From Omnitrophica WOR_2 bacterium RIFOXYA2_FULL_38_17 (lineage in GTDB: Bacteria > Omnitrophota > Gorgyraeia > Zapsychrales > Zapsychraceae), in NCBI GenBank assembly GCA_001805965.1, contig MHHG01000057.1:85975-149974 (forward strand): a DNA stretch of 64,000 bases. The letters are read 5' to 3'. Each line of letters opens with the position of its first letter. Within the stretch, counting starts at the first letter, position 1. Below, one piece after another: positions 959-56,028 of this stretch. The position numbers and the translations under genes were made by a program. Below the pieces are notes generated by a model that worked only from the letters and a program-made list of their open reading frames with translations, was not told the DNA's origin and made no database searches.

Positions 959-1935
959 TTAAATACCGCCTCCTTAACTTCTCGGATAGTCTTTTGCGCT
1001 ATAGCTTGAGCTTTCTTTTTTCCTTCATTTAGAATATCAATAACTTTTTGCTTATTAGCTTCCAACTCAGCTCTTTTATCTTTTATTGGCTTTAGCTTTT
1101 CGATCAAGACCTCAGCTAACTGTTTCTTGCAATCAGTGCAGCCTTTTTGAGCTGTTGTACACCATTTACATACATCTTGTGATTGACCTGATGCAAAAAC
1201 TTGATAGTAACTATATACATTGCATTCTTCGGGGTGGCCGACATCTAAGAGCTTTATCCTTTTGGGGTCCGTGATCATGCTTTTTACTTTCTTTAATATC
1301 ACATCATCGGCGTCTGAAAGATTAATAGCATTATTGTAGCTCTTACTCATCTTACGGCCATCAGTTCCCAGTAAGCGCGGCGTTTCTGTCAAAATAGCTT
1401 CACAATCGCCAAAAAGATCCGTTTTAAAAATATTATTGAATCTTCTGGATATTTCTCTCGTTAATTCAAGATGAGGCAATTGATCCTCGCCAATGGGAAC
1501 GGCATTTGCCTTGTAAAGCAATATATCTGCTGCCTGTAGAACTGGATAGCCCAAAAATCCATAGGTTTGTAGATCTCTTGTTTTTATTTCGCGCAGCTGC
1601 TCCTTATAGGTTGGATTCCTTTCGAGCCAGCCTAAGGGCGTAATACATGATAATATCATCTGTAACTCTAAGTGCTCATGAACATGTGATTGAACATACA
1701 CTATAGATCTTTCAGGATCAATACCACACGCTATCCAATCGATCGCCATATCAATAATATTTTCTTTTATTGAATAGCTATCCTCATACTCACCCATCAA
1801 TGCATGCCAATCAACTATTCCGAACGTACACGCATGATCTTCCTGTAAAACAATCCAATTTTTTAAAGCCCCTACTAAATGACCCAAATGTAGCTTACCT
1901 GTCGGGCGCATGCCGCTAAAAACTGTTTTTTTCAT
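955..1935 (-). CDS. trpS: Tryptophanyl-tRNA synthetase
   Basis: Class I HIGH motif (GMRPTGKLHLGHLVG) and KMSKS motif (KMSKSYNNAI). The 326 aa length fits. Confidence 0.9.
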   Translation of the reverse strand: MKKTVFSGMRPTGKLHLGHLVGALKNWIVLQEDHACTFGIVDWHALMGEYEDSYSIKENIIDMAIDWIACGIDPERSIVYVQSHVHEHLELQMILSCITPLGWLERNPTYKEQLREIKTRDLQTYGFLGYPVLQAADILLYKANAVPIGEDQLPHLELTREISRRFNNIFKTDLFGDCEAILTETPRLLGTDGRKMSKSYNNAINLSDADDVILKKVKSMITDPKRIKLLDVGHPEECNVYSYYQVFASGQSQDVCKWCTTAQKGCTDCKKQLAEVLIEKLKPIKDKRAELEANKQKVIDILNEGKKKAQAIAQKTIREVKEAVFK

Positions 1936-1966
1936 AAAACCCCTATTTGGTCAAAGCTGCTATCAT

Positions 1967-4483
1967 TTATAATTTTTGGGCAATTGTTTCAATATCATAT
2001 GCTTCAATAATATCGCCCGCCTTTATCTGATTAAAGCCATCCACAGTGATTCCGCACTCCATTCCTTCAGTAACTTCTCTGACATCATCTTTGAATCTTT
2101 TCAGAGAGCCTATCTTCCCGGAGAAAACGATCTCACTGTCCCGAATCACATCAACATTAGCTTTTCTCAGTACCTTGCCCTTTATAACATAGCATCCAGC
2201 AACAATGCCCTGTTTTGAAAGCTTAAAAACTTCCCTTATCTCTATCCTGCATAAGAATTTTTTTATCTTTTTAGCTTCTAGCAGACCTTCCAATGCACTG
2301 CGCACTTCATTAACAGCGTCATATATTATCCTGTATTGGCGGACATCAACATGTTCTTTTTCAAGCTCTTGCTTTGCCCTCACATCAATACCTACATGAA
2401 AAGCTATGATGATCGCATCAGATGCAACTGCAAGAACAACATCAGAAGTGTTCACTTCGCCCACTCCGGTATGAATGAACTTTACTTTTACTTTTTCGCT
2501 TGGTATCTTTGCCAAAGAATCACGCAAAGCTTCTAGAGAGCCCTGCACATCAGATTTCAAAATAACACTAAGCTCTTTTACTGCACCTTCCTGTATCTGC
2601 GAGTAAAGATCCTCCAATGTAATTCTTTGTTTGGCATTTAATCTCTTTTGCTTGACCAGCTCTTGCTTTCTTGAAGAAATATCTTTAGCCTGCTTTTCAT
2701 CCTCAACAACATAGAACCTTTCACCAGCTTCAGGGACATCTGAAAGTCCGAGGATCTCAACAGGCATTGATGGACCGGCTTCTTTAATTGGCTTGTGCCT
2801 ATCATTAAACATTGCCTTAACCTTTCCATAAAAAGGTCCGACAACCAAAAAATCACCATCATTAAGCGTACCACTTTGAACAATAAGAGAAGTGACTGCT
2901 CCTTTTCCTTGGCTCATATGTGCTTCAACTACAATTCCAGATGCCTTCTTTTTAGCATTTGCCTTCAACTCAAGCATCTCTGCTTCAAGAAGAACCATTT
3001 CAAGCAAATTATCAACACCATCACCTGTAAGACCTGAAACACCAGCGACAATAGTCTTTCCTCCCCAATCTTCTGCCAAAAGATCTAATTCCGACAATTG
3101 TTTTTTAACCCGATCAGGATCTGCATTCTTTTTGTCCATTTTGGTCAATGCGACAACAATTGGAACTCCCGCTGCTCTAGCATGATCAATGGCTTCTTTT
3201 GTTTGAAGCATAATGCCTTCATCAGCTGCTACAACAAGAATAATAATATCAGTAATATGCGCCCCTCTTGCACGCATTGCTGTAAAAGCTTCATGGCCAG
3301 GCGTATCAAGCAATGTAATCCTGCCTTTTGGCATCTCAACAGAATAAGCATCCATATGCTGAGTGATGCCGCCATGCTCCTGGTCAACAAGCTTGCTCTT
3401 CCTTATTTTATCAACTAATGTTGTCTTTCCATGGTCAACATGCCCCATGAAAGTAATAACGGGTGCCCTCCTGGTCAATAATTTAGGATCTTCTTCCTCT
3501 TCCTGATGAATTTCTATCAACTGTTCTTCCTGTGTTTTAATAGCGGCAAGCCTATATCCAAATTCCAGAGCAATCTTTTCGACTATTTCTCCTTCTAAGC
3601 TCAAATTTATATGAGCAAAAACTCCAAGCTTCATTAAATATTTTAAGACCATACTTGGCTTTTGCTGTACCTTAACACTAATATCCTTAACTGTAATAGG
3701 AACCCTGACTTCAATTTCAGGCATATCTTCAATATTTCTTACCGGAGTTTCTAAAAGCTCCGAAGAGGTATTTTGATTATGATCGGTTTCTTGATCAGCA
3801 ACTAAACCAATATCTTGATAATGCTCTTCTTCTGATCTATCACCATCTTTTCTTATAGCTGAGCGTTTCTTCTTCTTTAAAAGCGGTTTTAAAGTAATTA
3901 AAGGTTCTTTGCTTATCTTGGACCTTTGCTTTGTTAAACTTTTAGTAATACCCGTGCTAACCTCATCTTCATCAGCCTCAAAGCTCTTATCCTTTTTTAT
4001 TTTTACGCTAACTTTCTTTACTTTGACTTTTTGAACTTCTTTATCCCTAGCCTGAACTTTTATTTCAGTTTTCTTTTTAATAATTTCTTCTTTGACATCT
4101 TCCTTAACTTTCGATTCTTTCTTTTTTTCTACTTCCTTTACTTCTTTACCTTCCTGCACTTCCTTCTTAACTTCTTGCACTTCTTTCTTAACTTCCTGCT
4201 CTTCCCTATTGACTTCCTGCTCTTCCTTCTTAACTACCTTTTTCTTAATTTCTTTTTCAGTCTTCTTTACAACTTTCTTCTTAGGAGTTTTAGCAACTTT
4301 CTCTACTTTTTCTTTCTTAGTAGCTTGCTTCTTTTCAACCACAAATTCACTTTTTATAACAGAAGCAACCGCAGAGTTTAATTCCTGATCACCATCTTTC
4401 GCCTTTAATCTAAGCGCTCTCAATTTATCAAGAATTTCTTCAACGGAAACCCCAACTTTTTCTGCTAATTCAGATACTTTCAT
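1967..4483 (-). CDS. infB: Translation initiation factor IF-2 with a long Lys/Glu-rich repetitive N-terminal region
   Basis: GTP-binding domain with [18 protein letters not shown] and NKMD-like motifs. Conserved rimP-nusA-infB synteny. N-terminal KKEVQEV-type repeats. Confidence 0.95.
4060..4300 (-). repeat. Imperfect in-frame tandem nucleotide repeats (about 21-27 bp units) encoding the K/E/V-rich region of IF-2
   Basis: Repeated cttcctgcacttccttcttaacttc-type units on the plus strand. They encode [22 protein letters not shown]. Confidence 0.6.
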
Positions 4484-4502
4484 ATACTAAAATTCCTCTC
4501 GA

Positions 4503-5717
4503 CTACTCACATTGTTCTAATAAAGTTTTTGCTTCACTAATCAATTTTTCTGCTTTGGTTTTTCCTAAGCCTTTAACTTTCATAAGTTCTTCAGGTGTAG
4601 CATCGGCGATCTTATCAAGAGTATCAAATGCTGCTTCCTGTAACTGATCTATCATTTTCTTGCCAACACCTGGAAGATCAGCAATAGTAATTTCTTCAAT
4701 TTCTTCCTTAACGCCATTTTTTTCAATTGGTGCCATAACTTCAGCAGCATCTTCACCTTCCTCTTGCATTTGATTCCATTGATCCATTGAGAACAGGTTT
4801 AATTCCCAGCCTACGAGCTTACTTGCCAATCTCACGTTTTGCCCTCGCTTTCCAATTGCTAAAGACAATTGGTCATCAGCTACTATTATATTCGCCTTCT
4901 TATCTTCAAAATCAAGCTGTATCTGAGAGATCTCAGCAGGGGAAAGAGCTGCCTGAACATACTCCTTAATATCAGAAGAATAACGCACTATATCGATCTT
5001 TTCGCCATGAAGCTCAGTAACAATATTCTTTACTCTGGATCCTCTCATGCCAACACAAGCCCCGACACAGTCAACTTTTTCGTCTTTCGAATAAACAGAT
5101 ATCTTTGTGCGCTCACCAACATTCCTCGATATTGATTTAATTTCAACAATGCCTTCATAAATTTCAGGCACCTCCAGTTCAAATAATCTTTTAACAAAAT
5201 TCGGATGGGCCCTGGAAAGAACAACTTGCGGACCACGGTTCTCCTTTTTAACATCTAGGACATAAGCCCGTATCCTGTCTCCTTGCCTGAACTCTTCTTT
5301 AGGAGACTGCTCTTTTTTCGGAATATAAGCTTCTGTTTTCCCCAAGTCTATTATTATATTGCCCTTTTCAAACCTATATACACCTCCGCTAATGATCTCC
5401 CCGACCCTTGCACAATATTCAGTAAAAACCACATCTTTCTCTGCTTCCCTGATTTTCTGAATAATAACTTGTTTTGCCGTCTGAGCAGCTATACGCCCAA
5501 ATTCACTTGAACGTATTTCCTCATTCCCGACATAAGCAGTTATAGTGCCTGTTTTAGCGTCCAGAACCGCTCTAATTTCTTCTTCTTTATCCACCGTCCA
5601 TAATTTTTTTGCAGCGGATGCAACTGCTGCCTCAACAGCTTCAATAAGTATTTTCTTATCAATGCCCTTATCTCTTTCTAATTGCTCCAAGATTCCTATC
5701 AAATCACCACTTTCCAT
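4503..5717 (-). CDS. nusA: Transcription termination/antitermination factor NusA
   Basis: S1 and KH domains (GERTKISVYS...; LAIGKRGQNVRLASKLVGWELNL). Position between rimP and infB. Confidence 0.9.
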   Translation of the reverse strand: MESGDLIGILEQLERDKGIDKKILIEAVEAAVASAAKKLWTVDKEEEIRAVLDAKTGTITAYVGNEEIRSSEFGRIAAQTAKQVIIQKIREAEKDVVFTEYCARVGEIISGGVYRFEKGNIIIDLGKTEAYIPKKEQSPKEEFRQGDRIRAYVLDVKKENRGPQVVLSRAHPNFVKRLFELEVPEIYEGIVEIKSISRNVGERTKISVYSKDEKVDCVGACVGMRGSRVKNIVTELHGEKIDIVRYSSDIKEYVQAALSPAEISQIQLDFEDKKANIIVADDQLSLAIGKRGQNVRLASKLVGWELNLFSMDQWNQMQEEGEDAAEVMAPIEKNGVKEEIEEITIADLPGVGKKMIDQLQEAAFDTLDKIADATPEELMKVKGLGKTKAEKLISEAKTLLEQCE

Positions 5718-5742
5718 TATTTTTTACCCTTCCTATACTTTT

Positions 5743-6198
5743 CTATATAATTTGAACTGCTTTATTAATTGTTTCGTACAGAATAACTAACTCCTCTGAC
5801 TTAACCTTGATTTTTACTTCATTATCAAAAACTTCAGATACTATCCCAGAATGTTCAAGCTTTCCTTGAAGTTTTTCATTAAGAAAGAACCTGACATCCC
5901 TTCCCATAACCCTCATGAAATCCCTTTTGTCTTTAAGCGGCCTGTCCACACCAGGTGAAAAAACATTAACTGCATAACCTGACCCGACAATCTCAAGCTC
6001 TTCAAGATTCCTTGATACTTCCCTGTTTATGTAAGCACACTCATCGCTATTAATTCCGCCATTAACTTTATCTGCAATGATCTCAATAACAGTTATATTA
6101 TTCTGTTTATAAACCTTAAGCTCAACAATATCAGCATTAATCTCACCTAATATAGGCCTAGCGATATCCTCGATACATCGCTTTAGATCTTCAAACAT
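5743..6198 (-). CDS. rimP: Ribosome maturation factor RimP
   Basis: 151 aa protein immediately upstream of nusA in the conserved rimP-nusA-infB operon. Confidence 0.75.
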   Translation of the reverse strand: MFEDLKRCIEDIARPILGEINADIVELKVYKQNNITVIEIIADKVNGGINSDECAYINREVSRNLEELEIVGSGYAVNVFSPGVDRPLKDKRDFMRVMGRDVRFFLNEKLQGKLEHSGIVSEVFDNEVKIKVKSEELVILYETINKAVQII

Positions 6199-7460
6199 TA
6201 TTTCAATAACTCCTGCACTTTACTTGTCAGATCTTCCTTTGGGACTAATATTACTTCTCCGGTTTTTCGAACCTTTATCTCAACATTTCCATTAGCTAAA
6301 TTACGCTTGCCAATAGTAACACGCAACGGCAGCCCTATAAGGTCAGCATCATTGAACTTTCTTCCTGCAGTTTCTTCTCTATCGTCAACCAAGACATCAA
6401 ATCCTTGGCTTTTCAATTCTGCATAGTATTTGTTAGCCAGCTCCACTATTTCTGCTGCATTATCCCCGCTACCTATTGGAAGGATTTCTATTTGAAACGG
6501 AGCAACCTCTTTGGGCCAGATAATGCCATTTTCATCGTTATGCTTTTCAATAATAGCTGCGATCGTCCTGCTTACGCCTATACCATAACAGCCCATAATA
6601 ATAGGTTTCTGTTTTCCATCCTCATCTAAAAATAAAGCTTGTTGGGCTGCGCTATATTTTGTTCCAAGCTGAAAAATATGGCCTAATTCAATTGCTACTT
6701 GCTTTTTTAATTTTATCTCATTACATTCAGGACAGCTAATGTTATCAGAGCCATCCTGACTTACACCACCTTGATAACCACAAGCTTCGCAAGTTACTAC
6801 AGCATCTTCTCCAATGAGTGCCGGCACCATAAACTCATGAGAGATATCCCCGCCCATCGCACCTGAATCAGCAGCAACAATAACGACATCCAGGTCAAGT
6901 CGCTTGAATATCTTTTTGTAAGCCTGATACATCTTTTCATAATTGACCTTCATTCCCGCTTCATCACGATCAAAACTATAAGCATCCTTCATTATAAATT
7001 CACATGCCCTGACAATCCCGAAACGTGTCCTGATCTCATCCCTGAATTTTGTCTGTATTTGATACAAAACCTTTGGAAGCTGCCTGTATGACTGAACAAA
7101 ATTCTTAACCAGGTCAGTAATGGCTTCTTCATGTGTCGGCCCCAAACACATTTCCTTGCCTTTATTATCTTTAAATCTTATCATTACTTCAGACAGAACC
7201 TCATCTCTTTTGGTTTGCTTCCATAGTTCAATTGGCTGCAAACATGGCAGGAATAGCTCTCTTGCACCTGCTTCCTCCATTTCTTCCCGGATAATATTCT
7301 CGATATTTCTAAGAACCTTAAGACCAAAAGGCAAATAAGAATAAACTCCCGATGTTAACATGTGAACTAAACCGGCTCTCAAGGACAATTGATGGCTTAT
7401 TGCTTCTGTTCCGACAGGAACTTCCTTTAAAGTAGGAATAAAATATTTTGACCAATACAT
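6198..7460 (-). CDS. proS: Prolyl-tRNA synthetase, short form lacking the INS editing domain
   Basis: Class II aaRS motifs. The N-terminus YFIPTLKEVP...ISHQLSLRAG is typical of ProS. 420 aa, with a short Cys4 segment where the editing insertion normally sits. Confidence 0.85.
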   Translation of the reverse strand: MYWSKYFIPTLKEVPVGTEAISHQLSLRAGLVHMLTSGVYSYLPFGLKVLRNIENIIREEMEEAGARELFLPCLQPIELWKQTKRDEVLSEVMIRFKDNKGKEMCLGPTHEEAITDLVKNFVQSYRQLPKVLYQIQTKFRDEIRTRFGIVRACEFIMKDAYSFDRDEAGMKVNYEKMYQAYKKIFKRLDLDVVIVAADSGAMGGDISHEFMVPALIGEDAVVTCEACGYQGGVSQDGSDNISCPECNEIKLKKQVAIELGHIFQLGTKYSAAQQALFLDEDGKQKPIIMGCYGIGVSRTIAAIIEKHNDENGIIWPKEVAPFQIEILPIGSGDNAAEIVELANKYYAELKSQGFDVLVDDREETAGRKFNDADLIGLPLRVTIGKRNLANGNVEIKVRKTGEVILVPKEDLTSKVQELLK

Positions 7461-7484
7461 TGCAAATCTCTTTCTAATTAAAAA

Positions 7485-8753
7485 TTATTCTTTAAAAAAT
7501 CCTTGTGGTAGAGATATTCTTCTTTTCTCAAATTTAAAATAAAATGAAGGCTTCCTTCTGTCAAACTCCCACTCACCAATGATCTGACCATCTTCAGTTA
7601 TCGATTTTTCAACAAATTTAAACATATCTCTCATTTTAATCTCTTTTGTGTTTTCATCCAATGAAACATCAGTAAGACAAGTTACTCTTCTTTTCCCATC
7701 CATGAAAAGCTCTACGTGTATTATGACATCAATAGCATTTGCAATTTGAGCTTGAAATTCTTGAGTTGTGATAGGTATTCCCGTCATAATCATCATTGTC
7801 ACAAGCCTGTTAAAACAATCCTCTGGCGTTTCCGCGTGTACTATAGCTAGCGAACCGCTGTGGCCGCTAATGATAGCCTGGATCATATCAAGGGCTTCCC
7901 CTCCTCTAAGCTCTCCGACAATGATCCTGTCAGGCCGCATACGAAGAGAGTTAACAAAAAGGTCCCTCATTGTGATCTCACCTTTACCTTCAACGTTAGC
8001 AGACTTTGAGCATAAAGAAACAACATGTTTTTGGTGCAATCTCAACTCAGCAGTATCTTCTATAGTAATAATTCTTTCACCTTCAGGAATATGAGTAGAA
8101 AAAACATTCATCAATGTTGTTTTACCTGCTCCTGTTGACCCGCAAAAAACCACGTTCAGTTTTGCTTTCATTGCTCCAATTAAAAATGTAGCAATATTAT
8201 CATCCAATTCTCCAAGCCTGATCAAATCCTCAACAACACTGATCTGATCACTGAATTTTCTTATAGTTACTACTGGCCCTATCATAGAACAAGGAGGCAA
8301 AATAATATTTGCACGCGAACCATCAGGTAGAGAAAGATCAGCATATGGACAAGACTCATCAACTCTTTTTGAAGTTCCTGAACCCGCCAATATTTTCTGG
8401 ATAGTATGTGAAAGGCTCTGGTTAGACTCAAACTTTATGTCTGTTAATATCATCTTGCCAGCTCTTTGCACATATACCTTTTCTGCTCCATTTACCATTA
8501 TCTCTGTTACTGTTGGATCATCCATCAAAGGCTGTAATACCCCCATGCTAACAACCGCGCTGACAAGATCTCGAATGATCTTTTGTCTCTGCTCAAGAGT
8601 CGCCTCGATTTTTTGCTCTCTACATATTTGGACAATAGCTTTATCAACAAAATTCCTAAGCTCATCATCCGCCATCTTATCTTTTTGCCTAAGAAAATCT
8701 GTCTCTTTAATAATGTAAGAGTGTACTATTTGTTTCAAATCTTCAGTTGACAT
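7485..8753 (-). CDS. CpaF/TadA-family (type II/IV secretion) ATPase, orphan
   Basis: Walker A CGSTGAGKTT, the PTVTEIMVNG box, a Walker B/Asp box (RIIVGELRGGEA) and a His box (GHSGSLAIVHA). 422 aa. No other Tad/pilus genes are adjacent. Confidence 0.8.
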   Translation of the reverse strand: MSTEDLKQIVHSYIIKETDFLRQKDKMADDELRNFVDKAIVQICREQKIEATLEQRQKIIRDLVSAVVSMGVLQPLMDDPTVTEIMVNGAEKVYVQRAGKMILTDIKFESNQSLSHTIQKILAGSGTSKRVDESCPYADLSLPDGSRANIILPPCSMIGPVVTIRKFSDQISVVEDLIRLGELDDNIATFLIGAMKAKLNVVFCGSTGAGKTTLMNVFSTHIPEGERIITIEDTAELRLHQKHVVSLCSKSANVEGKGEITMRDLFVNSLRMRPDRIIVGELRGGEALDMIQAIISGHSGSLAIVHAETPEDCFNRLVTMMIMTGIPITTQEFQAQIANAIDVIIHVELFMDGKRRVTCLTDVSLDENTKEIKMRDMFKFVEKSITEDGQIIGEWEFDRRKPSFYFKFEKRRISLPQGFFKE

Positions 8754-8796
8754 TTTTTTCTCCAGTTTTCTTTCAAATATTCTTTATATAAACATT

Positions 8797-10197
8797 TTAA
8801 AACTTAAATAAGCTCAGCATTTTACCAAAAATCTTCTGTATGCCTTCTATCCATCCCTGGCGTGAAAAATCACTATAAAAGACAAACAAGGCCAAAAATA
8901 TAATTAATGTAAAACCCACTTTAGCAATAATTTCATCTGTTTTCTCAGACAGAGGTTTTCCTCTAACCTTCTCTATTCCAAGAAACAATAAATGCCCACC
9001 GTCAAGGGGCACAACAGGCAAAAGATTAAATATTGCAAGGCTTGCGCTAATAACCCCAAGAATAAATAGTAAATGTGATAATCCCATTCTTGCTGCTTCT
9101 TTTATGACATAAAAAATACCTACTGGGCCAGTAACTGATTCTTTTGCTGATATTGCCCCGGTGATCATATAATAAATAGATTTATATGTTGTAACTGTAA
9201 TAAAGACCAATTCTTCAAATGCAAATCTAACTGAATTAACGAGTCCAAATCTAAAAGAATCAAATTCCCCTAAAGGAGAAATTCCGACAATTCGCCTCTC
9301 AACAGTTTCACCAGATTCATTTTTCATAGCTTCTATTTTAGGTCCTATTTCAACCGTCATTTCTTTTTCATCTCTTATAAACCTGACTTGAATAATCTCT
9401 CCAGTTGATTTTAATATACTATTGTAAATATCTTCCCAATCAAATATCATATTAGAATCAATTTGGATAATTTTATCACCCTCGCGCAGGCCAGCCTTGT
9501 AAGCAGGATAATCCTCTCTTACATCACCAATCTTATTTGGCATCAAGCTTATCCCAATATCACGAACACTGCGATTTTCACCCAAAATATTTTGCTCACT
9601 AGTGACCGTCGGCTCAACATAAGCATCAATCTTTTGTTCATTTCTAACGACACTGATGAGAATGCGTTTGTCCGTACTTCCTTCAAGGCGAGTCCTTAAA
9701 TTGTTTAATCCGTATACTTTTGTTGAATCAACTTCAATTATTTTATCTCCTACCATTAATCCCGCTTTATGAGCAGGTCCATTAATTTCAATTTTTGTAA
9801 TTTTTGTCGAGCCTCCAGGATAGCCTAATAAAAAAACACAAACAAGACACAAATAGGCAAATATAAAATTAACAACAGGACCATTTAGGATAACAAGCGC
9901 TCTTTTGCCAGGAGGCTGAGAATAAAATTCTTTAGCGTCTCCTGTACATTCCGATCGTTCATCTCCCATCATCTTCACATAGCCGCCTAATGGAATAAGA
10001 CAAAGCAAGAATTCCGTACCATTAAAAACCTTTGAAAACAACTTAGGGCCAAAGCCCAGTGAAAATCTCTCAACTCCTATTCCTGCCCTTTTTGCAGTAA
10101 TATAATGTCCCCATTCGTGAACTACTATTAAAATGCTCAAAACTACGGCAAAAATTCCGACGCTCTTTATATTAGCAATTAGCTGTTCGATAATCAT
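8797..10197 (-). CDS. rseP: RIP site-2 zinc metalloprotease RseP with PDZ domains
   Basis: HEWGHY zinc motif near the N-terminus. C-terminal LDGG motif. Multi-TM protein with two PDZ-like segments. Position after dxr. Confidence 0.85.
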   Translation of the reverse strand: MIIEQLIANIKSVGIFAVVLSILIVVHEWGHYITAKRAGIGVERFSLGFGPKLFSKVFNGTEFLLCLIPLGGYVKMMGDERSECTGDAKEFYSQPPGKRALVILNGPVVNFIFAYLCLVCVFLLGYPGGSTKITKIEINGPAHKAGLMVGDKIIEVDSTKVYGLNNLRTRLEGSTDKRILISVVRNEQKIDAYVEPTVTSEQNILGENRSVRDIGISLMPNKIGDVREDYPAYKAGLREGDKIIQIDSNMIFDWEDIYNSILKSTGEIIQVRFIRDEKEMTVEIGPKIEAMKNESGETVERRIVGISPLGEFDSFRFGLVNSVRFAFEELVFITVTTYKSIYYMITGAISAKESVTGPVGIFYVIKEAARMGLSHLLFILGVISASLAIFNLLPVVPLDGGHLLFLGIEKVRGKPLSEKTDEIIAKVGFTLIIFLALFVFYSDFSRQGWIEGIQKIFGKMLSLFKF

Positions 10198-11351
10198 AGC
10201 TGGCTCATAACCTTTCTAGTTTCTTCCCTTGCCCAAATATCGGCATCCATAATTTGTTTTATACTAGGGCTGCTAACAATCTTGTGGTTCCTTACAACCT
10301 TAGCCACGACATCATATATTGAGTTAAAATTTAAAATGCCTTCTAAAAAGGACTCAACCGCCTCTTCATCTGCCGCATTTAAAACACATGGCAATGATCC
10401 GCCTTTTTTTAATGCATAATAAGCCAATTCAAGTGCGGGGAACTTCTTATAATCTGGCTTTTTAAACGTCAGTTTTTTTAACTCAACGAAATTCATGCTC
10501 TTCAATCCAGAATCAAGCCTGTCAGGATATGTCAGCGCATACTGAATAGGCAGCCTCATATCTGTAATACCAAGCTGGGCAATAATTGACCCGTCAACAT
10601 ATTCAACCATTGAATGTATAATTGCCTCTGGGTGAATCAATACATCAATTTCATCGGTTTTCAAATTAAACAATTTTTGGGCTTCAATAACTTCAAAACC
10701 CTTGTTCATCATAGTAGCAGAATCTACTGTTATCTTTTTTCCCATCTTCCATCTAGGATGACTTAATATCTGTCCAACTGTTAATCCATTGAACTTAGAC
10801 TTTGGAACATTTAACAACGCCCCTCCAGAAGCCGTTAAAAAAACCTTTTTTAATTCGCTTCTCTTCTGCCCATTCAAACACTGAAAAATAGCACTTTGCT
10901 CGCTATCGATCGGAACAATTGTAGCGCCATGCTCTCTTGCCTCTTGCATAATAATGTCGCCCGCCATGACCAAAGCTTCTTTATTCGCCGGAGCTACGAT
11001 CTTGCCTGACCTGACAGCCGCCAAGAACGGACCTAAAGCGCCCGCCCCCCTCATCGCGATAACAACCACATCAACATTCTTTAATGAAACTATGCTCTCA
11101 AGATCCCTGTTAACACTTAATATTTTGGTTTTGCCAGAACTTATTTTCTTTTTTAAATAAGCAACGCCTTTATCGCTGACACCTAAATGAGTAGGCTGAA
11201 ATTTCTTAGCTTGTTTCTCAAGTAGCTTAAAATTATTATAAGCAGTTAATCCAACAACTTTAAATCTTTCAGGATAACGCTCAACAACTTTTAAAGTATT
11301 AATACCTATTGAGCCAGTTGATCCGAGAATAACTATGTTTTTGCAGCCCAT
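10194..11351 (-). CDS. dxr: 1-deoxy-D-xylulose 5-phosphate reductoisomerase
   Basis: N-terminal ILGSTGSIGINTL NADPH-binding motif. 385 aa. Conserved uppS-cdsA-dxr-rseP order. Confidence 0.9.
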   Translation of the reverse strand: MGCKNIVILGSTGSIGINTLKVVERYPERFKVVGLTAYNNFKLLEKQAKKFQPTHLGVSDKGVAYLKKKISSGKTKILSVNRDLESIVSLKNVDVVVIAMRGAGALGPFLAAVRSGKIVAPANKEALVMAGDIIMQEAREHGATIVPIDSEQSAIFQCLNGQKRSELKKVFLTASGGALLNVPKSKFNGLTVGQILSHPRWKMGKKITVDSATMMNKGFEVIEAQKLFNLKTDEIDVLIHPEAIIHSMVEYVDGSIIAQLGITDMRLPIQYALTYPDRLDSGLKSMNFVELKKLTFKKPDYKKFPALELAYYALKKGGSLPCVLNAADEEAVESFLEGILNFNSIYDVVAKVVRNHKIVSSPSIKQIMDADIWAREETRKVMSQL

Positions 11352-11360
11352 AATGCCAAT

Positions 11361-12188
11361 TTATAAAGAATTTAAAATATGACTCATATAAAAATAAAAT
11401 GCAGGTGCTGAAAACAGCAAGCTATCAATTGCATCTAAAGCACCACCTAAAGCAGGCAACATTTTTCCGGAATCCTTTACATTGAAATCTCTTTTTATAA
11501 GCGATTCAGACATGTCACCAATTTGACCCATTCCCCCAAAAAACATTCCCACCAGTCCAATTTGCCAAAAAGAAAATCCTAATACAGCAGGGAACAAACC
11601 CTTTGCCAATATAGCAACAATAGCACTTGCAGCAAAACTGCCAATGGCTCCTTCAACCGTTTTTTTAGGACTTACCCTATAAAGCAACGGATGCTTTCCG
11701 AAATAAGAACCTATTAATAAGGCACCCATATCGCCAGATTTTGTTATCAAAAGCAAAAACCCTACCAATTTCATGCCAGCTCCTGAAACTTCTGGCATAA
11801 GAAACCTAATCTTAATTAAAAAACTAAAGAACCATGAAACATACAAGATCCCAAAAAGTGTTGTTGAAATGCCAACAATAGCATTACTATTATCTTTGCG
11901 TGCAAGCTGCATGATAAATATCATGATCAAAGCTAACCCAATAAAAAAAAGCTCCCACCCTTTTGTCGGCTGGAATTTAAAAAATATTGAGAGAGGTATT
12001 ATTGCTCCAATAGCGATACCGGTATAACTGTAAATGGGTATGCCTTTTTTCTTTACCAAATAAAAGAATTCATAAAGACCTCCAACCGTCAGCAATAATA
12101 AAACACTAATAAAAACCCAATCATTTATAACCGCAAAAAACGACAAAAGAATCATTACTGTTGAACTGAAAAGCCTATCCCTGTTCAT
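11361..12188 (-). CDS. cdsA: Phosphatidate cytidylyltransferase (CDP-diglyceride synthase). The likely true start is the internal Met (MNRDRL...); the track ORF extends to 12245
   Basis: Multi-TM protein with a C-terminal CTP-transferase signature (KRDFNVKDSGKMLPALGGALDAIDS). Position between uppS and dxr. Confidence 0.8.
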   Translation of the reverse strand: MNRDRLFSSTVMILLSFFAVINDWVFISVLLLLTVGGLYEFFYLVKKKGIPIYSYTGIAIGAIIPLSIFFKFQPTKGWELFFIGLALIMIFIMQLARKDNSNAIVGISTTLFGILYVSWFFSFLIKIRFLMPEVSGAGMKLVGFLLLITKSGDMGALLIGSYFGKHPLLYRVSPKKTVEGAIGSFAASAIVAILAKGLFPAVLGFSFWQIGLVGMFFGGMGQIGDMSESLIKRDFNVKDSGKMLPALGGALDAIDSLLFSAPAFYFYMSHILNSL

Positions 12189-12972
12189 CTTTTGTTTCCT
12201 TTTTATTAATAGCCCCAAAGCGCCTATCCCGCTTATTAAAATCAATAATTGCTTTTTCTAGTTCCTCCGATGTGAACTCAGGCCAATATTTCTCAGTAAA
12301 ATACAATTCAGCATAAGATAATTGCCATAATAAAAAATTACTTACTCTTTTTTCTCCGGAAGTTCGTATAAGAAGATCCGGGTCAGGTAAATTTTTTGTG
12401 TACATTGCTTTCGATATTTGATCTTCGTTAATATCGGCCAATTCCATTTTACCTGCTTTTACTTTGCCTGCTATTGATAAAAATGCATCTAATATTTCCA
12501 TTCTTGAGCCATAATCAATAGCCAAATTCAAGATCATACCATTACAATGCTTTGTATCTTTAGACACTTCGCTAATGGAGGCCAAGACATTTTCAGGTAA
12601 CCTGTTTGTCCTTCCAATCGTCTGAAATCTAATATGACGGTTCATCAACATCTTTTTTTTCTTTAGCATTAGCCCCGCAAGAGCGTTCATCAACATACTG
12701 ACTTCTGTTTGTGGACGATTCCAATTTTCAGTAGAGAAAGTAAACAATGTCAGTACTTTAATACCTAAATCGCTCGAACTCTTAATAATCTCTTCAACTC
12801 TTTTCATCCCTTCAAAATGGCCCTGGATCCTAGCCATTTTTCTCTTCTGTGCCCACCTTCCATTACCGTCCATTATTATTGCTACATGTTTGGGAATATT
12901 TTCAAATTTTTGATTTTTCATTTCATTTAAATAAAATGGGGGATTATTATCCCCCATCTCAAAGTCTCTCAT
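12175..12972 (-). CDS. uppS: Undecaprenyl diphosphate synthase (cis-prenyltransferase)
   Basis: HVAIIMDGNGRWA motif; the ERRFGAI C-terminus has the RxG motif. The start may be an internal Met. Confidence 0.9.
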   Translation of the reverse strand: MRDFEMGDNNPPFYLNEMKNQKFENIPKHVAIIMDGNGRWAQKRKMARIQGHFEGMKRVEEIIKSSSDLGIKVLTLFTFSTENWNRPQTEVSMLMNALAGLMLKKKKMLMNRHIRFQTIGRTNRLPENVLASISEVSKDTKHCNGMILNLAIDYGSRMEILDAFLSIAGKVKAGKMELADINEDQISKAMYTKNLPDPDLLIRTSGEKRVSNFLLWQLSYAELYFTEKYWPEFTSEELEKAIIDFNKRDRRFGAINKKETKDEQG

Positions 12973-13012
12973 CTAGCAATAGAAAAAGTTTTAATTAGTC
13001 ATCGCAACAATC

Positions 13013-13360
13013 CTAAAAATCCCCTGAAGAAACTTTTATCAACTCCTGGATTTTAGTTTCCAAGTTCTTTTTTATTTCAGAAACTTTATTCAATCGGTTC
13101 ATTAAATCCTCATTAACCATTTTCTCTTTAGTTAACAACGTTTCAATGTTTTCATTTTTTTTATGAACTTTTGCTAATTGTGATTCTAATGAAACAACCA
13201 TTTTCCTGGTTTTTTCTAGGTCTTCTTCAGCAACCATCCTACTATATCTTTCAGTATTTAATTTTTGCTGGGCTTTTAACAGATCAGTTTTAGAATTAAA
13301 TGCCATCAATCCACATGAAAAAAGCAAGACAATAATAAGAATTAATACAAGAACTCTCAA
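13013..13360 (-). CDS. Hypothetical membrane-anchored coiled-coil protein
   Basis: N-terminal hydrophobic helix followed by about 90 aa predicted coiled coil. No recognisable catalytic motif. Confidence 0.4.
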   Translation of the reverse strand: MRVLVLILIIVLLFSCGLMAFNSKTDLLKAQQKLNTERYSRMVAEEDLEKTRKMVVSLESQLAKVHKKNENIETLLTKEKMVNEDLMNRLNKVSEIKKNLETKIQELIKVSSGDF

Positions 13361-13383
13361 AATCCCCTCCTTTTAGATATAGA

Positions 13384-14013
13384 TCATCGTCCCTTTTTTT
13401 CTATTTTAGGAATAATTACGATCTCAACTCTGCGATTCTTTTGCCTTCCTTCAGCCGTATCATTTGTCGCTATAGGCCTATGCTCTCCATATCCGGTTGC
13501 CGACAAACGGTTAGAATTTATTTTCTGTTCATCTTCAAGATAATATAGAACACTTAAGGCTCTAGCAGAAGATAATTCCCAGTTTGATTTCCAGCCAGAG
13601 TACTTGATCGGCACATTATCCGTATGCCCTTCAATGCCGATAGAAAGATCTTTAACTGTCGTCTTTAAGACATCAGAGATTTTATCCAATGATAAATAAG
13701 CTTCTTGCTTTAACTCGTTTTTTCCTGAGTCAAAAAGAACTTCGGCGACAAAAGTAATAACAAGTCCTTTGTCAAGCATTTGGACATTTACATCTTTTTG
13801 CCCAATTTCATTCTTCAGCTTATCCTCCAATTCATTCTTGGCTTTTTCAAGGTCCGATAATTCTCCTTTGAGCTTTGATATCTTTTCAACATCAACTCTT
13901 CTGCCTTTTTGAAATATTATCGTACAGCCGTTAAATGATATAAATACAATAGTTATAATTAATAGATTTAAAAACCTCGATTTCTTGCTATACATAATTT
14001 CCTCCCTTTTCAT
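13384..14013 (-). CDS. OmpA/MotB-family peptidoglycan-binding domain protein (probable lipoprotein or membrane anchor)
   Basis: C-terminal OmpA-like motif (GHTDNVPI...SNWELSSARA...NRRVEIVI). N-terminal hydrophobic segment and a coiled coil. Confidence 0.7.
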   Translation of the reverse strand: MKREEIMYSKKSRFLNLLIITIVFISFNGCTIIFQKGRRVDVEKISKLKGELSDLEKAKNELEDKLKNEIGQKDVNVQMLDKGLVITFVAEVLFDSGKNELKQEAYLSLDKISDVLKTTVKDLSIGIEGHTDNVPIKYSGWKSNWELSSARALSVLYYLEDEQKINSNRLSATGYGEHRPIATNDTAEGRQKNRRVEIVIIPKIEKKGR

Positions 14014-14157
14014 ATTTAGGAAAATAATTTTCTAACAATAAGTACTATTAAATAATAGGTCAGATAGACAATCCTATGCAGATTTCAACATTAACATAGC
14101 GCTATTTTAAAGTCAAGATAATTCTCCAAACATAACGTATGTCAATAGGATACAACG

Positions 14158-15450
14158 CTAACAAACAATTATTTGGTCTCTTTTTGACCCTATAGAAACG
14201 TACTTCACTGCTACCTTAAGAAGTTTTTCCAGTCTTCTAACGTATTTCCTTGCATTAACAGGCAATTTGTTAAACTCTCTTATACCCGTTGTTGAAGTCT
14301 TCCAACCCTGCATTTCCTCATAAATTGGCTTTGCATTTGCAATAACTTCAAAATCTGTAGGAAAATTCTTATAGATTTTGCCTTTATATTTGTAAGCCGT
14401 ACATATCTTTATCTTTTCAAGATCATCAAGAACATCTAGCTTCATAATAGCAAGCTCGTCAATACCATTTAAAATGACGGAATACCTAACCAAAACACTG
14501 TCAAACCATCCGCATCTTCTTGGTCTTCCTGTTGTAGCACCATACTCTTTACCTTTTTTTCGAATATCATCTTTCAAGCGATTCGTAAATTCTGTAGGAA
14601 ACGGTCCTTCACCAACTCTAGTAGTATAAGCCTTTACACAAGCAATGGCTTTATCGATCTTAGTCGGCCCAACACCGGTCCCCGAGCAAACTCCTCCTAC
14701 AATAGAGTTCGATGAAGTCACAAAAGGATATGTGCCAAAATCAATGTCCAAGAAAGTGCCTTGAGCTCCTTCAAAAAGAATTGATTTTTTCTTATCAATT
14801 GCTTCGTTCAAATAAATAACAGTATCACAAATATACTTTTTCAGCTGTTTACCATAGCCCAAATATTCATTATATATGCTATCAAAAGAGTAACCCTTCG
14901 CTCCATACACCTTCTTAAAAATCTCGTTTTTCTCTAACAGATTATCTTTAAGCTTTTCTTCAAGCACTTTAGGGTTTAACAAGTCAACTAATCTGATCCC
15001 GCATCTCGTAACTTTATCAGAATAACAAGGGCCTATACCTCTTCCGGTTGTTCCAATCTTGTTTTTTCTTTTTGTTTCTCTTAACCCATCAAGAACTCTG
15101 TGATAAGGCATGACTACATGACATCTATCAGACACCTTAAAACGCTTTTCTGTCACCTTTAAACCTTTTTTTTCAAGATCACTTATTTCTTGAAGCAGTG
15201 CTTTGGGATCAACAACAACTCCATTGCCAATAACACAAACTTTTCCTTTATGTAATATTGCAGAAGGAAGCAAATGAAAAATATATTCCTTATTTCCTAC
15301 AACTACAGTATGACCAGCATTATTCCCTCCCTGATATCGAACAGTAATATCAGTATCTTTAGAAATAATGTCGATCAACTTTCCTTTTCCTTCATCACCC
15401 CACTGTGAGCCGACAACAACTAAATTCATTCTTAATCCTTTTTTTATCAA
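14158..15450 (-). CDS. purA: Adenylosuccinate synthetase
   Basis: VVVGSQWGDEGKGK P-loop and GNNAGHTV motif. About 425 aa. Confidence 0.9.
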   Translation of the reverse strand: MIKKGLRMNLVVVGSQWGDEGKGKLIDIISKDTDITVRYQGGNNAGHTVVVGNKEYIFHLLPSAILHKGKVCVIGNGVVVDPKALLQEISDLEKKGLKVTEKRFKVSDRCHVVMPYHRVLDGLRETKRKNKIGTTGRGIGPCYSDKVTRCGIRLVDLLNPKVLEEKLKDNLLEKNEIFKKVYGAKGYSFDSIYNEYLGYGKQLKKYICDTVIYLNEAIDKKKSILFEGAQGTFLDIDFGTYPFVTSSNSIVGGVCSGTGVGPTKIDKAIACVKAYTTRVGEGPFPTEFTNRLKDDIRKKGKEYGATTGRPRRCGWFDSVLVRYSVILNGIDELAIMKLDVLDDLEKIKICTAYKYKGKIYKNFPTDFEVIANAKPIYEEMQGWKTSTTGIREFNKLPVNARKYVRRLEKLLKVAVKYVSIGSKRDQIIVC

Positions 15451-15490
15451 TTACAGTTAAGATTTAAATCCCTTTTGAAAAATTAAAAAC

Positions 15491-16282: not shown

Positions 16283-16319
16283 AATTATTATAGAAATCTT
16301 TTAAAAGTATTATACATGA

Positions 16320-16360
16320 AGTGACAGTTCAAGCTAAATAATACTGCCTGAACTGTCACT
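16320..16360 (-). promoter_or_regulatory. Long near-perfect hairpin between serA and the downstream membrane-protein gene
   Basis: agtgacagttcaagc ... gcctgaactgtcact. About 15 bp stem, one mismatch, 11 nt loop. No adjacent U-tract. A TATAAT-like hexamer follows it on the minus strand. Confidence 0.4.
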
Positions 16361-16389
16361 AGCATAAATTAAGAACAGATTAAAACAAC

Positions 16390-41927: not shown

Positions 41928-42737
41928 TCAAAACCTATAACCGTTGACTATCCACGATATAATCAAATCTCCATAAAACAAGCTTATCAACGCCCCTAAA
42001 ACCAAAAAAGGGCCATAAGCTATCGCGGTATCTTTTGTGCGTATCATTTCAAATAGACCAAATATAGCCCCGAAGAAAGGCGCGACAAAAAATGAAAGCA
42101 GCGCTAGCTTCCAGCCTAAGAATGCTCCCACCATTGCAAGCAGCTTAACATCGCCTCCGCCAATAGATTCTTTTTTAAACATAAAATCCCCTATAATCCC
42201 CATTAAATAAACAGAACCCCCTCCTACTAATACTCCTAAAAGTGATAATCCAAGTGAATGCAAATGTACAAATAAAAAATGTTTGTTTGCATAATCCAAG
42301 CCATGCATCTCAGGAATGAACAAACTAAAGACCAGGCCCACAAACATTCCTCCAACACTTATCTCATCCGGAATAATCCTATGCTTAAAATCTACAATGG
42401 TGGCAACAATAAAACCGGACACCATAACAAGATAAGGGAATAGGATTTTCGAAAAGCCAAAATAACGGTATAAAAGCACAAAAGTGATTCCTGTTAGAAG
42501 CTCAACAAAAAAATACATAAAAGAAAACTTCGTTTTGCAGAACCGGCATTTTCCTCTTAAGAACAGATAACTGAAAAGCGGGATATTGTCATACCAGGGA
42601 ATTGTTTTTTTACATTTAACGCAATGTGATCGTGGCAGAATAACAGACTTCTCATCCGGCATTCGAACTATGCAAACATTCAAAAAACTTCCAATAATTG
42701 CGCCGAATATGAATACATATATGTCAATAATTATCAT
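41928..42737 (-). CDS. pilD: Type IV prepilin peptidase (A24 family)
   Basis: N-terminal Zn-binding tetracysteine (CVKCKK...CRFCK). Multi-TM protein with conserved Asp residues (IIPDE; GGGDVKLL). Confidence 0.8.
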   Translation of the reverse strand: MIIIDIYVFIFGAIIGSFLNVCIVRMPDEKSVILPRSHCVKCKKTIPWYDNIPLFSYLFLRGKCRFCKTKFSFMYFFVELLTGITFVLLYRYFGFSKILFPYLVMVSGFIVATIVDFKHRIIPDEISVGGMFVGLVFSLFIPEMHGLDYANKHFLFVHLHSLGLSLLGVLVGGGSVYLMGIIGDFMFKKESIGGGDVKLLAMVGAFLGWKLALLSFFVAPFFGAIFGLFEMIRTKDTAIAYGPFLVLGALISLFYGDLIISWIVNGYRF

Positions 42738-54717: not shown

Positions 54718-54730
54718 GTTATTACTCCTA

Positions 54731-55982: not shown

Positions 55983-56028
55983 CTCCTCTATTCTTACTCA
56001 ATTTTTTTCAATATTTACTCTTAACAAA

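Follow-up and report, generated by a model that had tools for sequence, protein, structure and literature searches.

A CpaF/TadA-Type ATPase Gene between rseP and proS, Encoded Apart from Filament Genes, in Velamenicoccia

Introduction

CpaF of Caulobacter crescentus is a bifunctional motor of the Tad pilus. Among its relatives in the T2SSE superfamily, FlaI has a platform, VirB11 works without one of the GspF type, and the archaeal ATPase PINA has been turned into a motor for Holliday-junction migration. PilT and PilU of type IVa pili are second motors of a filament machine, and their genes usually stand apart from those for pilus assembly. Velamenicoccia are bacteria of ultra-small size that probably live as predators or parasites, and the chief genomic hint of how they attack hosts comes from their Tad-like and giant-gene-associated secretion loci. 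In Omnitrophota, the Tad-like or "T2SS-like" locus precedes giant genes (West-Roberts et al., 2023, preprint). For CpaF, two elements that touch the platform, D208 in Loop 8 and residues 331–334 of the Central Loop, have been proposed with mutational data (PMC11300603).

Here we describe a proS-linked ATPase of the CpaF/TadA family, which we call S-type, encoded in a 64-kb stretch of DNA that was analysed as a whole (the window). The original prediction was of a complete secretion ATPase stranded in a housekeeping operon, an unusual arrangement that could reflect either service to machinery encoded elsewhere or co-option for a non-pilus function.

Results

S-Type Is a Complete CpaF/TadA-Type ATPase

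The S-type protein is a CpaF/TadA-type ATPase with complete catalytic motifs, as predicted. Residues 71–347 match Pfam PF00437 (T2SSE; E 4e-50), all four catalytic motifs can be read directly in the sequence, and NCBI entry HBG60359.1 is the identical protein. Its features are as follows:

7485..8753, (−) strand: S-type ATPase gene (proS-linked, CpaF/TadA family), ATG start, 422 aa
8553..8753, (−) strand: N-terminal helical region, residues 1–67, which aligns with the N-terminal helices of CpaF
8352..8369, (−) strand: Loop 8 motif KRVDES, in which D132 corresponds by alignment to CpaF D208, a proposed TadB/TadC contact
8112..8147, (−) strand: Walker A, FCGSTGAGKTTL, by direct sequence reading
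8043..8078, (−) strand: Asp box, ERIITIEDTAEL, by direct sequence reading
7980..7991, (−) strand: Central Loop EGKG (E255-G-K-G258), equivalent to CpaF E331-G-S-G334, a proposed platform contact
7905..7943, (−) strand: Walker B region, RMRPDRIIVGELR, by direct sequence reading
7833..7868, (−) strand: His box, SGHSGSLAIVHA, by direct sequence reading

The closest match in both sequence and structure is C. crescentus CpaF (8RKD, 8RJF, 9E24). In a phmmer search of the PDB, CpaF scored 281 bits (E 1e-82), compared with 129 for VirB11 and 127 for FlaI. Foldseek, run with an AF2 model of S-type (pLDDT 83.6), returned CpaF structures 8rjf and 9e24 as top matches, CpaF aligning with E 4e-40 and ∼34% identity over 414 columns. 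Query residues 23–396 align to residues 104–471 of full-length CpaF (9e24), and the two proteins share domain order, catalytic motifs, the Loop 8 aspartate and the Central Loop EGxG. Helices are predicted in the S-type N terminus at residues 3–17, 20–26, 29–46 and 53–66 (DSSP on the AF2 model). S-type differs from C. crescentus CpaF in lacking its long (∼80-residue) disordered N-terminal extension and in not being encoded with cpaE/tadZ, cpaG/H (tadB/C), cpaC or pilA. PilT and PilU have the hexameric T2SSE fold in common with S-type, but at 17%–20% identity in structural alignments they offer a likeness in how they work, not in membership.

No NCBIfam model passes its curated cut-off with S-type. 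The best, TIGR03819, reaches 272.4 bits where 373.15 are required; since this model describes a specific, actinobacterial-type subgroup, the shortfall does not exclude membership in the broader CpaF/TadA family. The TIGR03819 ATPases are likewise TadA-like and are named for a non-pilus, "helicase/secretion" neighbourhood, but there is no helicase neighbour at the S-type locus. Scores fall to 44.8 bits for pilT_fam (cut-off 319.1) and 28.7 for type_IV_pilB (cut-off 675.65).

Within the S-type clade the catalytic motifs, D132 and the EGxG loop are invariant, and 30 orthologues share 100 invariant columns. The clade and the CpaFs of Tad loci have 55 invariant positions in common, which include all catalytic motifs, and S-type is 38%–47% identical to the Tad-locus CpaFs, about as much as to the most distant members of its own clade. 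Only six positions are specific to the clade (K120, K198, F203, F266, S296 and A303), all of them conservative changes; S296 and A303 lie in the His box, where Tad-locus CpaFs have T at both sites. We also considered the C-terminal tail, PSF..KF.KR...LP.GFF, as a clade-specific extra domain and rejected it on finding its counterpart in canonical Tad-locus CpaFs. As both this tail and the N-terminal helices are common to canonical CpaFs, S-type contains no new domain.

The Gene Lies in a Housekeeping Block without Filament Genes

The neighbours of the ATPase gene are those predicted, the uppS-cdsA-dxr-rseP-proS block, all on the (−) strand:

10194..12972, (−) strand: dxr, cdsA and uppS, upstream part of the conserved block
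8797..10197, (−) strand: rseP (M50 site-2 protease, Peptidase_M50), upstream neighbour
8754..8796, (−) strand: rseP-ATPase spacer, 43 nt, in which a Shine-Dalgarno-like GGAG precedes the ATG
7461..7484, (−) strand: ATPase-proS spacer, 24 nt
6198..7460, (−) strand: proS, short 420-aa form, downstream neighbour
1967..6198, (−) strand: rimP, nusA and infB, downstream part of the conserved block
41928..42737, (−) strand: PilD-type prepilin peptidase (A24_N_bact and Peptidase_A24), 33 kb from the ATPase gene

The gaps of 43 and 24 nt and the GGAG element indicate that the ATPase is very probably co-transcribed with these envelope and translation genes. A promoter and terminator scan of positions 1900–16400 gave counts no higher than those of shuffled sequence, so the operon structure is read from spacing; no site isolates the ATPase gene, and the rseP-ATPase spacer contains no convincing promoter or terminator.

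As the original prediction had it, pilus machinery is absent from the vicinity. Pfam scans of essentially all ORFs of at least 100 aa in the window, with precomputed Pfam matches covering the genes of the block itself, detected no T2SSF, secretin, TadZ/ParA-like, RcpC or Flp protein, and HMMs built from 15 TadB/TadC sequences matched none of the window ORFs of at least 60 aa. The prepilin peptidase is the sole other filament-related gene in the 64 kb, by Pfam. The source contig continues for ∼10 kb past the left end of the window with ruvB, spoIID, queA, tgt, trmD, rplS, rnhB and folD, and there are no pilus genes in this stretch; no Tad or type IV pilus cluster begins directly beyond this end of the region. 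In all, no platform, secretin, TadZ or Flp gene was found within ∼17 kb of the ATPase on one side or ∼55 kb on the other.

The Arrangement Is Inherited in Related Genomes

Homologue scans, each limited to the best 80 matches, showed that rseP-(ispG)-ATPase-proS is the rule in related genomes and is an inherited arrangement. Among the best 80 matches, each of the 63 Omnitrophota-type loci retrieved with the ATPase keeps the order uppS-cdsA-dxr-rseP-(ispG)-ATPase-proS-rimP-nusA-infB, with ATPases 41%–65% identical to the window protein. When proS was the anchor, six of eight loci had rseP-(ispG)-ATPase-proS. The original description of the arrangement as unusual is partly supported: the separation from filament machinery stands, but the arrangement is no one-off. 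The ATPase likewise lies directly upstream of proS in loci L167 and L168. The gap between the two genes has a median of 8 nt in 58 related loci, and in some the genes overlap. Loci of the clade's more divergent half have ispG between rseP and the ATPase.

None of the 63 syntenic loci among the best 80 matches has a filament gene, T2SSF included, within ∼10 kb of the ATPase. In contrast, TadB and TadC are adjacent in 12 of 17 non-syntenic CpaF loci. Two related loci read rseP-ispG-proS without the ATPase, and their proS nests inside the clade; since the gene is absent from these metagenomic loci, it is not indispensable. The ATPase-less order rseP, ispG, proS occurs in L093, L095 and L098. Because every taxonomically placed locus belongs to one class, Velamenicoccia/Koll11 (orders Zapsychrales, Gygaellales and Velamenicoccales), we rejected a claim of phylum-wide distribution.

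Every complete syntenic locus carries the gene as an uninterrupted, full-length frame. Among close relatives, the ATPase is on average 59.6% identical to the window protein, compared with 62% for dxr, 64% for cdsA, 54% for uppS and 51% for rseP. Since GC and GC3 of the gene equal those of its neighbours and the synteny is inherited, we reject recent horizontal acquisition.

S-Type Forms a Separate Neighbour-Joining Clade beside the ATPase of the Tad-like Locus

In neighbour-joining trees, in which Tad-locus CpaFs formed the comparison set, the S-type clade has a bootstrap of 100/100 and excludes all 19 of those sampled, the TadZ::CpaF fusion included. The fusion (L071, L079, L169) is the ATPase of the Omnitrophota Tad-like locus of relatives, which also encodes RcpC, a secretin and ∼10 Flp-type pilins (G/xxxxEY). 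It belongs to the same phylum as S-type and its T2SSE core is ∼43% identical, but it is ∼720 aa long, carries an N-terminal ParA/MinD-like TadZ domain and is embedded in PPIase-RcpC-secretin-...-Flp pilin arrays. As judged from shared NCBI locus-tag prefixes (DD723 and A3C36), at least two MAGs contain both paralogues, S-type DD723_06620 with fusion DD723_10375 in one and A3C36_07820 with A3C36_05880 in the other. Comparison of both hit lists by eye found no contig carrying S-type together with a fusion gene.

In the Tad-like locus of relatives, the 10 kb downstream of the fusion ATPase contain no T2SSF that could be recognised, and a Pfam search for a platform there found only a class III signal-peptide pilin. 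A 629/653-aa ORF following DUF192 was considered as the platform and rejected, as its product is soluble and shows no relationship to TadB/C (hhalign probability <1%). A second paralogue, S2, shows decay of Loop 8 and of the His box, unlike S-type.

Discussion

S-type is a well-behaved CpaF homologue at an unusual but stable address, a lead from comparative genomics and not a new kind of system. What might it do? The most likely reading, which we hold with about even confidence, is that S-type is an active motor serving a type IV filament platform encoded elsewhere. This choice follows from the retention of both D132 and E255-G-K-G258, the second of which VirB11 lacks. Of the two functional ideas first put forward, machinery encoded elsewhere fits the sequence better and co-option for a non-pilus function fits it less well, since the contact residues are invariant and there is neither a new domain nor a divergent motif. 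Counting against a motor role, no platform gene (T2SSF) was found near S-type, either in the window or across more than 60 syntenic loci, and none was recognised downstream of the fusion ATPase in the Tad-like locus.

S-type is a distinct, vertically inherited CpaF/TadA paralogue and, if it is such a motor, would act as an active hexamer. The gene probably arrived at the ancestral rseP-ispG|proS junction before the Velamenicoccia (Koll11) orders sampled here diverged, and has kept its place, very probably co-transcribed and probably also translationally coupled with proS. As the Tad-like locus already has its own ATPase, S-type is best read as a second motor, perhaps expressed constitutively beside the fusion ATPase. 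It may be an opposing or alternative motor of the Tad-like machine, much as PilT is, or the motor of another filament system. Precedent does not require a second motor, since C. crescentus CpaF is bifunctional. An accessory machine fits better than an essential housekeeping role, as two related loci lack the ATPase. Hexamer formation, ATPase activity and platform docking, together with the identity of the partner and the division of labour between motors, are what we infer.

A dedicated opposing motor would bear on how Tad systems extend and retract, and with a dedicated second motor a Tad system would run on two motors, where Caulobacter has one bifunctional CpaF.

It is also possible, though unlikely, that S-type has been co-opted as a platform-independent ATPase for another membrane or envelope process or for a nucleic-acid transaction. 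Such a role would account for the fixation of the gene in an envelope/isoprenoid/translation operon. The gene has a stable place among housekeeping genes, more than 60 genomes showing no filament gene within 10 kb of it, and is as conserved as core enzymes. Sharing an operon with rseP, ispG and proS says little about function, since the block is widespread and occurs in the same order without the ATPase, and the gene is not essential, as two related loci with a proS nested in the clade lack it. PINA provides a precedent within the superfamily, and weak matches to it were found (22.9 bits with NCBIfam; 5f4h with Foldseek), but PINA is very distant and nothing in S-type points to DNA transactions. 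Moreover, only six conservative substitutions set the clade apart, and the proposed platform contacts do not vary within it; in VirB11, which works without a GspF-type platform, the EGxG loop has been lost.

Published surveys bear on whether S-type might occur in cells that have no Tad platform. TadBC/RcpA were reported in only 74 of 116 Velamenicoccia species (Seymour et al., 2023), a patchy distribution that is consistent with co-option. In the per-genome KO data of the same study, which for our purposes comprise three genomes and are anecdotal, the 92.7%-complete Velamenicoccia genome 231 (family 4484-171) has the cpaF KO K02283 and pilB, pilC, pilD, pilM and pilT, and lacks the other Tad KOs searched (K02279, K02280, K02282, K12510 and K12511). 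From these two observations, within the limits of those data, S-type may occur without a Tad platform. The strongest departure, that the clade has left filament machinery for a platform-free, membrane-associated process tied to its envelope/isoprenoid/translation operon, we consider distinctly unlikely. In a milder version, S-type would be a dedicated second motor, of the retraction or the extension type, of a Tad-like machine. A platform-free S-type would be a new bacterial co-option of this ATPase family and would add a functional branch to the T2SSE superfamily in bacteria.

Could S-type instead be the organism's own tadA/cpaF, a sole motor moved out of the Tad locus? The protein is CpaF-like in every motif, public records name the gene TadA or CpaF, and Tad-type components are known in Velamenicoccia from the published data cited above. 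We nevertheless think this quite improbable. In relatives the Tad-like locus carries a 720-aa TadZ::CpaF of its own, MAGs DD723 and A3C36 contain both genes, and the S-type clade excludes the fusion ATPases with full bootstrap support. Since that locus has its own fusion ATPase, S-type is better regarded as an extra paralogue than as a dislocated member.

Far less probable is that S-type belongs with the VirB11/TrbB ATPases of type IV secretion or conjugation. The VirB11 model TIGR02788 does score 209 bits and the TrbB model 164.5, and VirB11 structures are among the PDB matches in both phmmer and Foldseek. Both scores are nevertheless under their curated cut-offs (249.95 and 304.55), and CpaF outscores VirB11 by far in the PDB search. 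S-type has the N-terminal domains and Central Loop of CpaF, which VirB11 lacks; the Central Loop position reads EEEN in B. suis VirB11 and GGEG in FlaI. Pfam scans detected no T4SS genes in the 64-kb window, and S-type is vertically inherited, with GC3 like that of its neighbours. A VirB11/TrbB identity is effectively refuted. Least credible is a non-functional or decaying hitch-hiker in the operon, which the loss from two related loci might suggest, given the intact frames, the 100 invariant columns with every catalytic residue kept and, by contrast, the decay seen in S2.

A class-conserved, putative second CpaF-type motor coupled to proS and kept apart from the Tad-like and giant-gene-associated loci is undiscussed in the literature that we searched, and any model of the filament machinery would need to include S-type. 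Neither the ATPase nor its position is mentioned in Seymour et al. (2023), West-Roberts et al. (2023), a 2026 complete-genome preprint or the Ace Lake paper; literature searches for CpaF with orphan, proS or paralog returned nothing relevant, and we found no paper on the arrangement. The gene itself is already annotated in public records, where it appears as "type II secretion system protein E," "CpaF family protein" or "Flp pilus assembly complex ATPase component TadA."

Results

An intact CpaF-type ATPase in a housekeeping block

The ATPase, a member of the proS-linked type of the CpaF/TadA family (S-type), is encoded by an intact reading frame that matches the Pfam T2SSE family (PF00437; E = 4e-50), and its motifs were read from the sequence as follows:

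7485-8753, minus strand: S-type ATPase ORF, 422 aa, ATG start
8112-8147, minus strand: Walker A, FCGSTGAGKTTL
8043-8078, minus strand: Asp box, ERIITIEDTAEL
7905-7943, minus strand: Walker B, RMRPDRIIVGELR
7833-7868, minus strand: His box, SGHSGSLAIVHA

None of the NCBIfam curated models passes its cut-off with this protein, the top scores being 272 bits for TadA-family TIGR03819 (cut-off 373) and 209 bits for VirB11 (cut-off 250). Among solved structures, a sequence search placed CpaF, the Tad pilus motor of Caulobacter crescentus, far ahead (E = 1e-82, 281 bits), with VirB11 at 129 bits and FlaI at 127 bits; a VirB11-type ATPase is thus poorly supported. When an AlphaFold2 model built with 30 orthologues as input (mean pLDDT 83.6) was used for a structure search, CpaF structures again ranked first, with the predicted model aligning over 414 columns. 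Since both searches agree, the ATPase has the full CpaF architecture, and the only part missing is the long N-terminal extension of C. crescentus CpaF. Sequence and modeled fold alike place the protein in the CpaF/TadA subfamily, as database names already do: its own entry, NCBI HBG60359.1, is titled "type II secretion system protein E," and homologues are recorded as "CpaF family protein" or "Flp pilus assembly complex ATPase component TadA."

All neighbors are co-oriented with the ATPase, with uppS, cdsA, dxr and rseP upstream and proS, rimP, nusA, infB, a class I (Trp/Tyr-type) tRNA synthetase gene and scpA downstream. The gap to rseP is 43 nt, with GGAG ahead of the ATG, and that to proS is 24 nt; promoter and terminator consensus scans around the block gave no signal above chance. 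A Pfam scan of essentially all other ORFs of at least 100 aa in the window showed a housekeeping setting, with genes for LPS, lipid A and the biosynthesis of amino acids as well as topA, dprA, xerC and rpsB-tsf-pyrH-frr, and identified a single other filament-related gene:

41928-42737: PilD-type prepilin peptidase

TadB and TadC HMMs, built from 15 proteins of canonical loci, had no match in the window. These scans bear out the original prediction, which described an ATPase inside a housekeeping block with the peptidase as the sole other pilus-related gene. Past the window, the source contig (ENA ANAN16-1 scaffold_19, 272,950 bp) carries ruvB, spoIID, queA, tgt, trmD, rplS, rnhB and folD; in all, the analysis covered ~74 kb of this genome.

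A conserved address beside proS

Candidatus Omnitrophota MAGs are the source of the 120 closest homologues listed, which show 60-90% identity and are all 394-435 aa long. We scanned one genome per GTDB species and retained the best 80 loci, among which the ATPase lies immediately 5′ of proS in 63 of 63 Omnitrophota-type loci (41-65% identity). These share the block uppS-cdsA-dxr-rseP-ATPase-proS-rimP-nusA-infB; the more divergent half additionally carry ispG, placed after rseP and before the ATPase, and often overlapping the ATPase start by 4-8 nt. The median distance from ATPase stop to proS start is 8 nt (58 loci). Because all loci placeable in the taxonomy of Seymour et al. belong to the class Velamenicoccia (GTDB Koll11), with the window type in Zapsychrales and divergent types in Gygaellales and Velamenicoccales, we claim conservation across the class rather than the phylum.

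Several MAGs with the full Omnitrophota-type block (loci L009, L018, L020, L024, L075 and others from our scans) are titled "uncultured Planctomycetales," "Planctomycetia" or "Elusimicrobia bacterium," yet group inside Omnitrophota clades in both ATPase and ProS trees; these titles are probably a poor guide to where the MAGs belong. The synthetase encoded next to the ATPase has the following form:

6198-7460, minus strand: ProS, short form, 420 aa

A small four-cysteine segment (C224, C227, C243, C246), invariant in 12 Omnitrophota sequences, replaces the usual bacterial insertion (editing) domain. Short ProS also occurs in many other lineages in the metagenome scan, and the ~570-aa form in others.

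Among close relatives, mean identity to the window is 59.6% for the ATPase, similar to dxr (62%) and cdsA (64%) and above uppS (54%), rseP (51%) and rimP (38%). There are 100 invariant columns among 30 orthologues, and GC and GC3 resemble those of neighboring genes. A decaying hitch-hiker is poorly supported.

In an unbiased, proS-anchored check of metagenome contigs, likewise limited to the best 80 hits, the ATPase was present in six of the eight Omnitrophota-type loci with sufficient upstream sequence. The other two (L093, 1854-5149; L095, 1856-5254) have the order rseP-ispG-proS-rimP-nusA-infB, with ispG abutting proS. As their ProS proteins nest within the ATPase-bearing clade, the ATPase was apparently lost or relocated. 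No such gene adjoins proS in ~70 loci of other lineages on these contigs. The simplest history would begin with an ancestral order rseP-ispG-proS, followed by a single ATPase insertion before the sampled orders diverged, later loss of ispG from the site in Zapsychrales and occasional loss or relocation of the ATPase.

A paralogue distinct from Tad-locus ATPases

Ordinary Tad loci make up the 17 of the best 80 that lack proS synteny; their sources are Vampirovibrio, Acidobacteria, Armatimonadota, Chloroflexi, Nitrospirota and two Omnitrophota. One of them, L074, has secretin, ParA-like TadZ, CpaF, TadB and TadC, and in 12 of the 17 TadB/TadC adjoin the ATPase. Both Omnitrophota loci (L071, L079) encode a 720-aa TadZ::CpaF fusion within the order PPIase-RcpC-secretin-fusion-DUF192. 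This Tad-like locus (L071, 5162-16673; L169, 6411-19056; L079) comprises, in order, a PPIase (Rotamase_2), RcpC, a secretin with a TonB_C domain, the fusion, DUF192, a soluble ~630-650 aa protein without Pfam match and ~10 tandem Flp-type pilin genes (KGQSTxEY); in a relative from the window's order, the ~10 pilins have the G/xxxxEY motif. No recognizable TadB/TadC (T2SSF) gene lies within 10 kb downstream. West-Roberts et al. report a "type II secretion-like" locus upstream of giant genes, which this one matches. The fusion occurs widely and is well conserved, with at least 120 clusters at 66-100% identity among the matches listed.

In neighbor-joining trees, the method used throughout, proS-linked ATPases are monophyletic (100/100 bootstraps) and every Tad-locus CpaF, fusions included, falls outside. 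Locus tags place an S-type ATPase and a fusion in the same MAG twice (DD723_06620/DD723_10375; A3C36_07820/A3C36_05880). The separate clade and this coexistence make the S-type a paralogue distinct from Tad-locus CpaF.

In some Velamenicoccia lineages a second T2SSE paralogue (S2, ~38% identity) lies between proS and rimP, so that proS is flanked by two CpaF-like genes:

L040, 12749-13906: S2
L043, 12712-13947: S2
L061, 12458-13480: S2
L088, L089 and L092: S2

S2 is sister to the S-type (74/100 bootstraps). Its Loop 8 aspartate is gone (RVSE, RVTE or RVNS), and in two cases R or Q takes the place of the first His in the His box, which suggests an inactive or regulatory subunit.

Retention of predicted platform-contact residues

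The S clade and 18 Tad-locus CpaFs have 55 near-invariant positions in common, every catalytic motif among them. Just six positions differ consistently, each by a conservative change (K120, K198, F203, F266, S296, A303). The C-terminal tail and N-terminal helices are likewise common to the S clade and canonical CpaFs. Hohl et al. (PMC11300603) showed that two membrane-facing elements of CpaF are required for function, Loop 8 (D208) and the Central Loop (E331-G-S-G334), with the platform proteins CpaG/CpaH as their predicted contacts. These elements align with D132 and E255-G-K-G258 of the window ATPase, both invariant in the clade. At the Central Loop position, where the window ATPase has EGKG, FlaI, which has a GspF-type platform, has GGEG, whereas Brucella VirB11, which lacks one, has EEEN. 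We infer that the S-type is still suited to docking on a GspF/TadBC/PilC-type platform, although the same residues could instead matter for the hexamer itself.

Discussion

The best explanation, to which we give roughly even credence, is that the S-type, expressed along with housekeeping genes, is an active motor of the CpaF type for a type IV filament platform encoded elsewhere. Since the Tad-like locus has its own ATPase, the S-type may be a second motor beside it, by analogy with PilT, the second motor of type IVa pili. It could also drive another system.

Against a motor with a distant platform, no platform gene was found in the window, and at the Tad-like locus no recognizable T2SSF gene within 10 kb downstream. 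In the tables of Seymour et al., as far as these were available to us, a 92.7%-complete Velamenicoccia genome has the cpaF KO and none of the other Tad KOs searched, with pilB/C/D/M/T present; Seymour et al. also record TadBC/RcpA in just 74 of 116 Velamenicoccia species. Together, the missing platform gene, the solitary cpaF KO and the patchy TadBC/RcpA keep alive a less likely reading, in which the ATPase was co-opted and no longer has a filament role. That the S-type is instead the dislocated sole motor of a Tad system is improbable and poorly supported, as the Tad-like locus carries its own ATPase, the fusion, in the same MAG as the S-type in two cases.

In the literature searched, we found no description of a fixed proS-adjacent address across an Omnitrophota class, of the S-type and the TadZ::CpaF fusion as separate paralogues or of their coexistence. 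The S-type has an unusual, stable genomic context and does not define a new system; its use is as a lead into how these putative predators live.

Finally, we note other features of the window. Just upstream of uppS (13013-14013, minus strand), two genes that are syntenic in most close relatives encode a 209-aa lipoprotein with an OmpA domain and a membrane-anchored coiled-coil protein of 115 aa; also conserved is an ORF of 263 aa without Pfam match between purA and serA (15491-16282, minus strand). Three minus-strand ORFs are fusions of envelope-biogenesis genes: LptC with an LptA-like domain (21639-22463, 274 aa), GT4 with GT9 (heptosyltransferase; 30844-32937, 697 aa) and a lipid A acyltransferase with an ELM1-like domain (33012-35015, 667 aa). 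In many bacteria rpsB-tsf-pyrH-frr is contiguous with uppS-cdsA; here the former (54160-56811, minus strand) lies ~41 kb from the latter (12175-12972, minus strand), with LPS, amino-acid and other genes between. Almost every gene lies on the minus strand, and GC skew is uniformly and strongly negative across 1-64000 (about -0.25 per 2-kb window), weakening only at 58-62 kb, where two plus-strand genes encode a GFO/IDH/MocA oxidoreductase and LpxB.
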